A stretch of 64,000 nucleotides of DNA from Escherichia coli (lineage in GTDB: Bacteria > Pseudomonadota > Gammaproteobacteria > Enterobacterales > Enterobacteriaceae): NCBI RefSeq assembly GCF_046105845.1, contig NZ_CP151004.1; one strand, written 5' to 3'. Numbering within the stretch: the stretch's first letter is position 1; every line of letters begins with the position of its first letter. Made by a program: the position numbers and the translations under genes. The notes below the pieces were generated by a model. The model ran no database searches. It had not been told where the DNA came from and saw only the letters and a list, made by a program, of their open reading frames with translations. Shown piece after piece: positions 61,242 through 61,776 of this stretch.

Positions 61242-61271
61242 AAAAAAACCGACATGACAGTCGGTTTTTTT
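61242..61271. terminator. Bidirectional rho-independent terminator, for selU (plus) and for the candidate antisense sRNA (minus)
   Basis: aaaaaaaccgacatgacagtcggttttttt: perfect 6-bp stem with an A-tract on one side and a T-tract on the other. Confidence 0.75.
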
Positions 61272-61330
61272 ATTTTTTCCGCCCAAAACTTGGTGGTTCC
61301 GGGCAGAAATGAAACAGTCCTCATCTAGCA
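61242..61330 (-). ncRNA. Candidate antisense antitoxin sRNA (~89 nt) paired with the downstream small toxin ORF
   Basis: Minus-strand promoter TTTGAA(61365-61360)-N18-TATAAT(61341-61336); predicted 5' end at about 61330, the edge of a 16-nt repeat also found in the toxin leader; ends at the bidirectional terminator. Confidence 0.4.
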
Positions 61331-61589
61331 AGTGAATTATAAGTCAGGATGCCTACATATTCAAACAGCTATGTTGGCGATACAATCCCGACGCTAGTAG
61401 TGATACTGCCTCAAGGGATTACCGCAGTGCGGAAAAGTACTTTTAAGTCCTGGTCAGGATACAGGTGGTGCTGATTCTGGTGCTCTAATTTGGAGAGAGG
61501 CAGTCCTCATCTAGCACATGAAGAAAATCATAGTTACAGGCAACGTAAGGGTAAGCTGTGATTGTCTTTCTCCCTTAAGGGAGCAACGG

Positions 61590-61673
61590 ATGAAAACTTT
61601 TCTCGATAAAGTTCTCATCATTCTTAAGGCGCTAATCGCGCTGCTGGAACTGATCCGTCAGTTTATTGAATAA
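61590..61673 (+). CDS. Small hydrophobic peptide (27 aa), candidate type I toxin of the DinQ/ShoB class
   Basis: MKTFLDKVLIILKALIALLELIRQFIE; SD aagggag 6 nt upstream of the ATG, sequestered in the palindrome ctcccttaagggag; in-frame stop 39 nt upstream; the motif ALIALLELIR matches what I recall of E. coli DinQ. Confidence 0.55.
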   Translation: MKTFLDKVLIILKALIALLELIRQFIE

Positions 61674-61689
61674 CTGAGGAAACGTAGCT

Positions 61690-61720
61690 AAGGCCGAAGG
61701 TTTACCACCTTCGGCCTTTA
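61690..61720 (+). terminator. Stem-loop downstream of the small toxin ORF
   Basis: aaggccgaagg-tttacca-ccttcggcctt, an 11-bp stem; weak T-tract, followed by a second imperfect hairpin at 61722-61745. Confidence 0.5.
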
Positions 61721-61776
61721 AAAAAACCGACATGACAGTTGGTTTCATATTTATTGCCAAAATGCACACTGTTCAT

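Follow-up and report, generated by a model that had tools for sequence, protein, structure and literature searches.

Two nearly identical 26-base sequences flank a small toxin/RNA module in the spacer between selU and ybbP of Escherichia coli, which raises the question of where these repeats came from and what they mean for the module between them. We analyzed this locus in a 64,000-nucleotide stretch of an E. coli genome (contig NZ_CP151004.1; hereafter, the window). The left neighbor is selU, or mnmH (tRNA 2-selenouridine synthase; 60084-61178, plus strand), and the right neighbor is the 3' part of ybbP (61891-64000, minus strand), which is convergent with selU and runs off the window; both were identified from the open reading frame (ORF) list and from matching RefSeq genomes. 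As read from the window sequence, copy 1 of the repeat (AAAAAAACCGACATGACAGTCGGTTT; 61242-61267) and copy 2 (AAAAAAACCGACATGACAGTTGGTTT; 61720-61745) were identical at 25 of 26 positions, the sole difference being C/T at position 21, and their starts were 478 bp apart. With up to three mismatches allowed, they were the only matches within the 64-kb window. A second match to the 26-mer occurred in none of 100 shuffles, and the number expected by chance was 0. Thus, the 26-bp direct repeats with one mismatch that were reported in the preliminary description are real.

The repeat pair could be extended by 1 base leftward (T), and in a repeat search the alignment reached 40 nt with 83% identity. 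Immediately to the right of copy 2 lie 17 nt (61746-61762) that are probably homologous to the segment at 61268-61288; they aligned with the bases following copy 1 on its right better than did controls that were shuffled or matched in composition (P of ~0.003 to 0.007); this 17-mer is T rich, so the homology beyond 27 nt is tentative. Regarding the content between the repeats, the small RNA (sRNA) promoter, the toxin leader, the ORF, and its stem-loop were all found inside, as had been described, but that list omitted the body of the antisense RNA, which is also wholly enclosed, and did not mention that copy 1 is the predicted terminator of that RNA.

The toxin ORF (MKTFLDKVLIILKALIALLELIRQFIE; 27 aa; 61590-61673, plus strand) is preceded by GGAG at 61580-61583 on the same strand. 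The peptide scored 37.2 bits against the NCBIfam model NF041472 (toxin_DinQ; cut-off, 30), a longer 51-aa gene call of the toxin matched Pfam DinQ (PF28061), and the PGAP name for the gene in RefSeq genomes is dinQ. It fell outside the DqlB subgroup, with a score of 23.2 bits for NF041473 (DinQ_rel/DqlB; cut-off, 35). The leader, ORF, and 3' untranslated region (UTR) shared 67 to 72% DNA identity with plasmid dinQ/dqlB loci (blastn), indicating conserved elements, and the motifs AAGTCCTGG...ACAGGTGGTGCTG and GGAAACGTAGCTAAGG were common to dinQ/dql mRNAs and the present module. The 3' end of the toxin mRNA (GGAAACGTAGCTAAGG-hairpin-CTTTAA) was kept in all of the family loci that we read. Its own terminator hairpin, recognized as an inverted repeat and by folding (61690-61718, plus strand), consists of a 12-bp GC-rich stem that is followed by only three T residues (i.e., it is T poor). 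By-eye alignment with the TATAAT/TATGAT elements of homologous loci places a probable -10 element of the toxin mRNA promoter, TACAAT, at 61381-61386 (plus strand).

A motif search revealed no LexA core (CTG-N10-CAG) anywhere in the DNA from 61193 to 61762, which corresponds to the insert delimited below. The sole near-LexA motif (CTA-N10-CAG; 61353-61368) overlaps both of the divergent -35 regions. Because a canonical LexA core is missing, the "damage-inducible" of the PGAP name is unsupported by the sequence at this locus, and SOS control of the module is doubtful. The site of the module also differs from arsR-gor. Taken together, the missing core and the different site indicate a dinQ-like paralogue rather than dinQ itself.

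On the opposite strand, we detected an AgrB-like antisense (antitoxin) sRNA gene at approximately 61240-61329. The Rfam model RF02891 (AgrB) matched the minus strand at 61240-61328 over the full length of the model (positions 1 to 84) with 51.4 bits (gathering score, 40), and the predicted fold was stable (-38 kcal/mol; z, -7). The 5' end was placed on the basis of the promoter (TTGAAT, 17 nt, TATAAT; 61336-61364, minus strand), which matched the sigma-70-like consensus at 10 of 12 positions and was the only strong site of this type detected in the region. A repeat search identified a 22-nt direct repeat, with the first copy at the 5' end of the sRNA (61315-61336) and the second copy in the toxin leader (61501-61522, plus strand), where it would form the sRNA target site. 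The two copies are identical at 20 of 22 positions, including 16 contiguous ones (61315-61330 and 61501-61516), so the 5' end of the sRNA is perfectly complementary to the leader over 16 nt.

Copy 1 lies at the other end of this sRNA gene. The two-strand terminator scan identified it as the core of a perfect 14-bp bidirectional intrinsic terminator (61240-61273), its folds were strong on both strands (-16.4 and -17.5 kcal/mol; z, -6.8 and -7.5), and it is covered by the terminator portion of the Rfam AgrB model. It was also invariant across all lineages seen. On these sequence grounds, copy 1 is the predicted Rho-independent terminator of the AgrB-like sRNA on the minus strand. Because the hairpin is perfect in both directions, it has probably also ended the selU transcript on the plus strand since the insertion.

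The hairpin is not peculiar to this spacer. The AAAAAAACCGAC stem and the 14 bases beside copy 1 recur in other dinQ/dql loci. At the canonical locus, both agrA and agrB end in a AAAAAAACC(C)GAC stem flanked by A and T tracts, and terminators of this kind occupy the equivalent position in AgrB-like genes on E. coli, Citrobacter, and Salmonella plasmids and in the Salmonella ICE-like elements whose peptides are most closely related to the present one. Furthermore, the segment at 61224-61237 (CACCAGAATACAGA) agreed at 13 of 14 positions, and in the same register, with the sequence that flanks an AgrB-like gene of a Salmonella plasmid (position 1608); none of 500 shuffles was as good, and this was one of 11 comparisons. 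The shared stem and in-register flank therefore make the hairpin a family trait of the antitoxin gene, contrary to the proposal that it was derived from the selU terminator.

We delimited the insert by alignment with the empty-site alleles of E. coli MS15236 and SX4 and with Escherichia albertii. It comprises 570 bp (61193-61762) and includes both repeats and the whole module. The empty-site spacer reads ...TGATGGGGGATTCTG|TGCACGCTGTTCATGCC... and then continues into REP elements, with no copy of the hairpin; in terms of the junction, ...ATTCTG|TGCAC... in the empty site corresponds to ...ATTCTG|AAACGG...CCAAAA|TGCAC... in the window. The REP/BIME elements (61770-61880) were found in empty alleles and are native to the spacer, outside the insert. 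Empty sites were present in at least 457 E. coli genomes (e.g., MS15236, SX4, and Nissle 1917). E. albertii, our outgroup, shares the same empty junction and has no hairpin, and the empty state is therefore ancestral. Citrobacter and other genera were unusable as outgroups, since ybbP is not adjacent to mnmH there.

The insert begins 49 nt to the left of copy 1 and stops 17 nt to the right of copy 2; therefore, both repeats arrived inside it, and a split or duplicated selU terminator does not explain them. This result, together with the hairpin-free empty sites in E. coli and E. albertii, contradicts the suggestion that a cassette was inserted into, or duplicated, the selU terminator. A target-site duplication generated upon insertion also fails, given that the empty sites hold no copy and that the repeats are not the outermost bases of the insert. 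The alignments with empty alleles revealed no target-site duplication or terminal inverted repeat at the insert ends. Within the left arm (61193-61241), which is absent in empty alleles, only the 14 nt adjoining the hairpin match a family flank, and the first ~30 nt matched no identified sequence. We also considered whether the left 49 nt could be the decayed 3' end of a toxin gene, as redundancy of a tandem unit would predict, and found no convincing similarity by eye or with MAFFT.

The insert was carried by ~1,320 of 5,426 complete E. coli genomes (~24%), and the hairpin with its flanks was found on none of the plasmids in this collection. Given this distribution, the empty sites, and the rhsD element (ylbG...rhsD) that occupies the gap in K-12, the module is accessory DNA, as had been surmised. 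It is visibly decaying in part of the population. Among the insert-bearing genomes, 190 had a 108-nt internal deletion (equivalent to 61502-61609) whose ends are the imperfect 10-nt repeats AGTCCTCATC and AGTTCTCATC; this allele has lost the sRNA target, the Shine-Dalgarno sequence, and the start and first codons of the toxin and has kept the sRNA gene and both hairpins. Another deletion, of 70 nt (~61644-61713), was found in one genome (strain GF43) and removed the toxin C terminus and its own terminator. In GF43, the ORF is fused to hairpin copy 2, and PGAP calls a 73-aa hypothetical protein.

Loss of the module by recombination between the repeats would leave the left flank, one hairpin, and the right flank. 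We searched for this predicted junction (98 nt) in the 5,426 genomes and found it as a single piece in five (AR_0077, GF131, LR-28, PapM-32-1, and PapRG-04-4). Each allele has one repeat between the flanks, with the crossover inside the repeat, as expected for a repeat-mediated deletion. The diagnostic mismatch site was C in two of these genomes and T in three; their flanks differed mutually by up to 3% and shared local variants with different module-bearing haplotypes. The combination of C and T variants on differing flanks therefore indicates at least two independent deletions, and there were probably three or more. A sixth case was the GTDB species representative labeled E. coli SCPM-O-B-8794, a divergent Escherichia whose MnmH is 95% identical to that of the window; its single hairpin combines the body of copy 1 with a right flank that is typical of copy 2 in divergent lineages. 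These alleles bear out the earlier idea that recombination between the repeats can remove the unit. The accompanying expectation that strains lacking the module should show one hairpin with a clean junction held for the five genomes above, but not for the at least 457 genomes with hairpin-free empty sites (i.e., the single hairpin accounts for ~1% of module-less selU-ybbP junctions). When we looked for a duplicated module, the reciprocal product of such a deletion, the single longer allele that was inspected (L117) proved to contain only an REP/BIME expansion.

Copy 2 differs from copy 1 in its state of preservation. It directly abuts the toxin's own terminator, and folding and lineage comparison characterize it as a degenerate copy of the sRNA terminator. 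The predicted folds (-8.5 kcal/mol and z of -2.0 on the plus strand; -6.3 kcal/mol and z of -0.7 on the minus strand) did not clearly exceed those of shuffled sequences on either strand. Where the plus-strand stem keeps a G-U pair, the minus-strand stem has an A-C mismatch; the T tract is lost. In divergent Escherichia lineages represented by metagenomes, the module had the same boundaries, copy 1 was unchanged, and copy 2 was altered in other ways (AACAAAACCGGCATGACAGTCGGTTT), with substitutions of A>C and A>G there and of C>T in E. coli. Since copy 2 changed differently while copy 1 remained invariant, the duplication is old and copy 2 evolves more freely.

No sRNA-type hairpin was present 3' of the toxin terminator in any other dinQ/dql locus that we read, including the Salmonella loci on ICE- or plasmid-like DNA that encode the most similar peptides; these have a single sRNA terminator and no downstream copy. 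Copy 2 most likely derives from a second copy of the sRNA gene, reduced to a truncated 3' end of ~44 nt. Plasmids, Salmonella relatives, and viral and metagenome contigs yielded no donor in which the toxin is followed by an intact second sRNA gene. The hairpin had no match in viral contigs and 10 matches in metagenome contigs, 7 of which were inspected and all of which lay at the selU-ybbP locus. The best plasmid match was 72% identical, and no plasmid had a close copy. Three near-identical "plasmid" records were set aside because, at 1.2 to 4.9 Mb, they exceed the size of plasmids and are probably mislabeled chromosomes.

The system belongs, on sequence grounds, to a known kind, the dql-type type I toxin-antitoxin modules, as the PGAP name already implies. 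Its closest described counterparts are dinQ-agrA/agrB, located in the arsR-gor spacer of E. coli K-12, and the dql (dinQ-like) family (Weel-Sneve 2013, PMC3567139; Kristiansen 2016, PMC5066626). The present module shares with them a small hydrophobic toxin with an ALIALLELIR core, a long structured leader, a conserved 3' UTR and terminator, and a divergent, nonoverlapping sRNA of ~85 to 90 nt with an Rfam AgrB match and the same terminator stem. Complementarity between sRNA and leader is likewise encoded as a direct DNA repeat (PMC5066626, PMC12365149), and the sRNA gene tends to duplicate (agrA/agrB). In contrast to dinQ/agrB, the present module is located at selU-ybbP, is polymorphic, lacks a canonical LexA box, and has one complete sRNA gene plus a 44-nt remnant that stands after the toxin rather than before it. 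Perfect pairing extends over 16 nt, compared with ~31 to 36 nt in dinQ/agrB and dqlB/agrB (PMC5066626, PMC12365149).

For DinQ/AgrB, the toxicity of the peptide and its neutralization by sRNA pairing have been shown (PMC3567139). The dqlB-agrB pair is an addiction module of pOXA-48 and of IncL/M, IncI1, and IncX plasmids, for which toxicity, base-pairing antitoxin action, and killing after plasmid loss have been demonstrated experimentally (PMC12365149). It has the same architecture and sRNA family as the present module, which differs in being chromosomal and in having a toxin that scores below the DqlB cut-off. The present peptide was closest (~70 to 73% identity) to copies on Salmonella ICE- or plasmid-like DNA, which suggests that this branch of the DinQ family travels on mobile elements. 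The closest relatives (Salmonella loci L102, 2224-2720, and L103, 2181-2680) are located by a phage-type integrase and an SprT-like gene or amid ICE conjugation genes (TraG, DUF3487, and RAQPRD). A Salmonella IncFII plasmid (NZ_CP022492; 579-2230 of the extracted locus) carries two tandem dqlB genes; ahead of the first stand two, and ahead of the second three, AgrB-like sRNA genes in tandem, each of which scored above the Rfam gathering score.

Repeats are also a feature of other type I loci of E. coli, including LDR (ldr/rdl), QUAD/SIB (ibs/sib), and the tandem zorO-orzO/zorP-orzP pair. In the LDR, QUAD/SIB, and zorO-orzO loci, multiplication of tandem units causes parts of one unit to flank the next. 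The removal of an interior by recombination between flanking direct repeats, with one repeat left as a scar, is familiar from solo-LTR formation. The present repeat differs from those of LDR, SIB, and solo LTRs in being only ~26 to 44 nt long and in representing part of the antitoxin gene itself, not a complete repeat unit.

We regard it as probable that the module is an imported dql-type unit in which copy 1 is the sRNA terminator and copy 2 is a decaying duplicate of the sRNA 3' end that serves as a deletion substrate. On this account, an ancestor of E. coli and related Escherichia lineages would have acquired the 570-bp DNA with its DinQ/AgrB-type module in the spacer between selU and ybbP. 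The plus strand would give rise to a long-leader mRNA for the 27-aa hydrophobic toxin, and, by homology, the 5' end of the ~90-nt minus-strand sRNA would pair with the leader and block toxin synthesis. Copy 2 would most likely be the remnant of a second sRNA copy or of a tandem array; the tandem origin is favored because the family is prone to tandem multiplication of its sRNA gene (agrA plus agrB, and two and three copies on the Salmonella plasmid). The one demonstrable effect of the two repeat copies is to provide a substrate for deletion by homologous recombination or replication slippage, which removes toxin and antitoxin at once and leaves one hairpin within a 92-bp scar.

The existence of single-hairpin alleles could also be read the other way, with a native terminator of selU (or of selU and ybbP) as the insertion target that became duplicated, the single hairpin as the preinsertion state, and the sRNA as the borrower of a resident terminator. 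Consistent with this reading, copy 1 is predicted by both scan and folds to act as a plus-strand terminator just after selU, and the divergent SCPM-O-B-8794 has a single hairpin identical to copy 1. However, E. albertii and the at least 457 E. coli genomes with empty sites have no hairpin, and they share one junction that lies outside both repeats. The stem and its 14-nt flank are common to AgrB-like genes elsewhere, and the single-hairpin alleles are rare (5 versus ~1,320); their C or T at the diagnostic site and their flanks from different module-bearing haplotypes are expected of recombinants and not of an ancestor. We therefore consider a native terminator highly improbable. That the two hairpins are unrelated terminators that came to resemble each other by chance or convergence has virtually no likelihood: intrinsic terminators do share a composition of A tract, GC stem, and T tract, but this would not produce agreement at 25 of 26 bases including the 6-nt loop, which no shuffle reproduced, and recombinants between the two copies exist.

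Another possibility is that copy 2 is maintained as a functional element, i.e., as a backup terminator for readthrough toxin mRNA, as an insulator of the module against convergent ybbP transcription, or, given its plus-sense complementarity to the 3' hairpin of the sRNA including the loop, as a second pairing site. It is retained in all module-bearing lineages seen with its loop, ATGACA, unchanged, and neither stem substitution abolishes plus-strand pairing, which persists as G-U. On the plus strand, the scan detected a terminator-like site at 61724-61745, next to a toxin terminator with only three T residues after it, and the predicted duplex between copy 2 and the sRNA 3' end is as strong as that at the leader site. 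The G-U-preserving substitutions could hint at selection rather than decay, although two events are too few to show it, and two transitions would give this pattern by chance in one of four cases. Moreover, the fold of copy 2 barely exceeds those of shuffled sequences, the T tract is lost, no other family locus that we read has such an element, and complementarity follows automatically for any direct repeat between divergently transcribed genes. Overall, a maintained function of copy 2 appears unlikely.

A narrower proposal, in which copy 2 works as a second antitoxin site instead of being a scar, is very unlikely in our view. Since toxin and sRNA are encoded on opposite strands, a readthrough tail past the T-poor toxin terminator would carry a stem-loop fully complementary to the terminator hairpin of the sRNA. 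The loops AUGACA and UGUCAU could then kiss, so that, besides the 16-nt leader site, the mRNA would offer a second site at its 3' end for docking or for RNase III. If so, a single duplication would both tighten toxin control and give the module a clean, built-in route of deletion.

Returning to the imported module with a decaying second hairpin, we found no description in the literature of the selU-ybbP module, of the terminator duplicate that flanks it, or of single-hairpin scars. One consequence would be that, in approximately a quarter of E. coli strains, the terminator of selU is an imported one, i.e., the antitoxin RNA's own. The locus cleanly illustrates, in nature, the life cycle that a type I toxin-antitoxin module can pass through on a chromosome, with five states in public genomes: the empty site, the intact insert, the toxin-inactivating deletion (190 genomes), the precise repeat-mediated loss (5 genomes), and the replacement by an Rhs element. 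It may thus serve as a handy marker and as a test case for how such a module is lost without killing the cell.

The selU-ybbP gap (61179-61890) is a hot spot with several alternative occupants. In K-12, the ylbG-rhsD element takes the place of the REPs as well and changes the final codons of mnmH; Escherichia whittamii and Escherichia sp. MOD1-EC7003 have yet other content in the gap. Between hairpin copy 2 and ybbP, the copy number of REP/BIME elements varied from almost none to several units. In the window, the Rfam matches to ES036 (40.3 bits, above the gathering score) and naRNA4 fall on these REPs (61770-61880).
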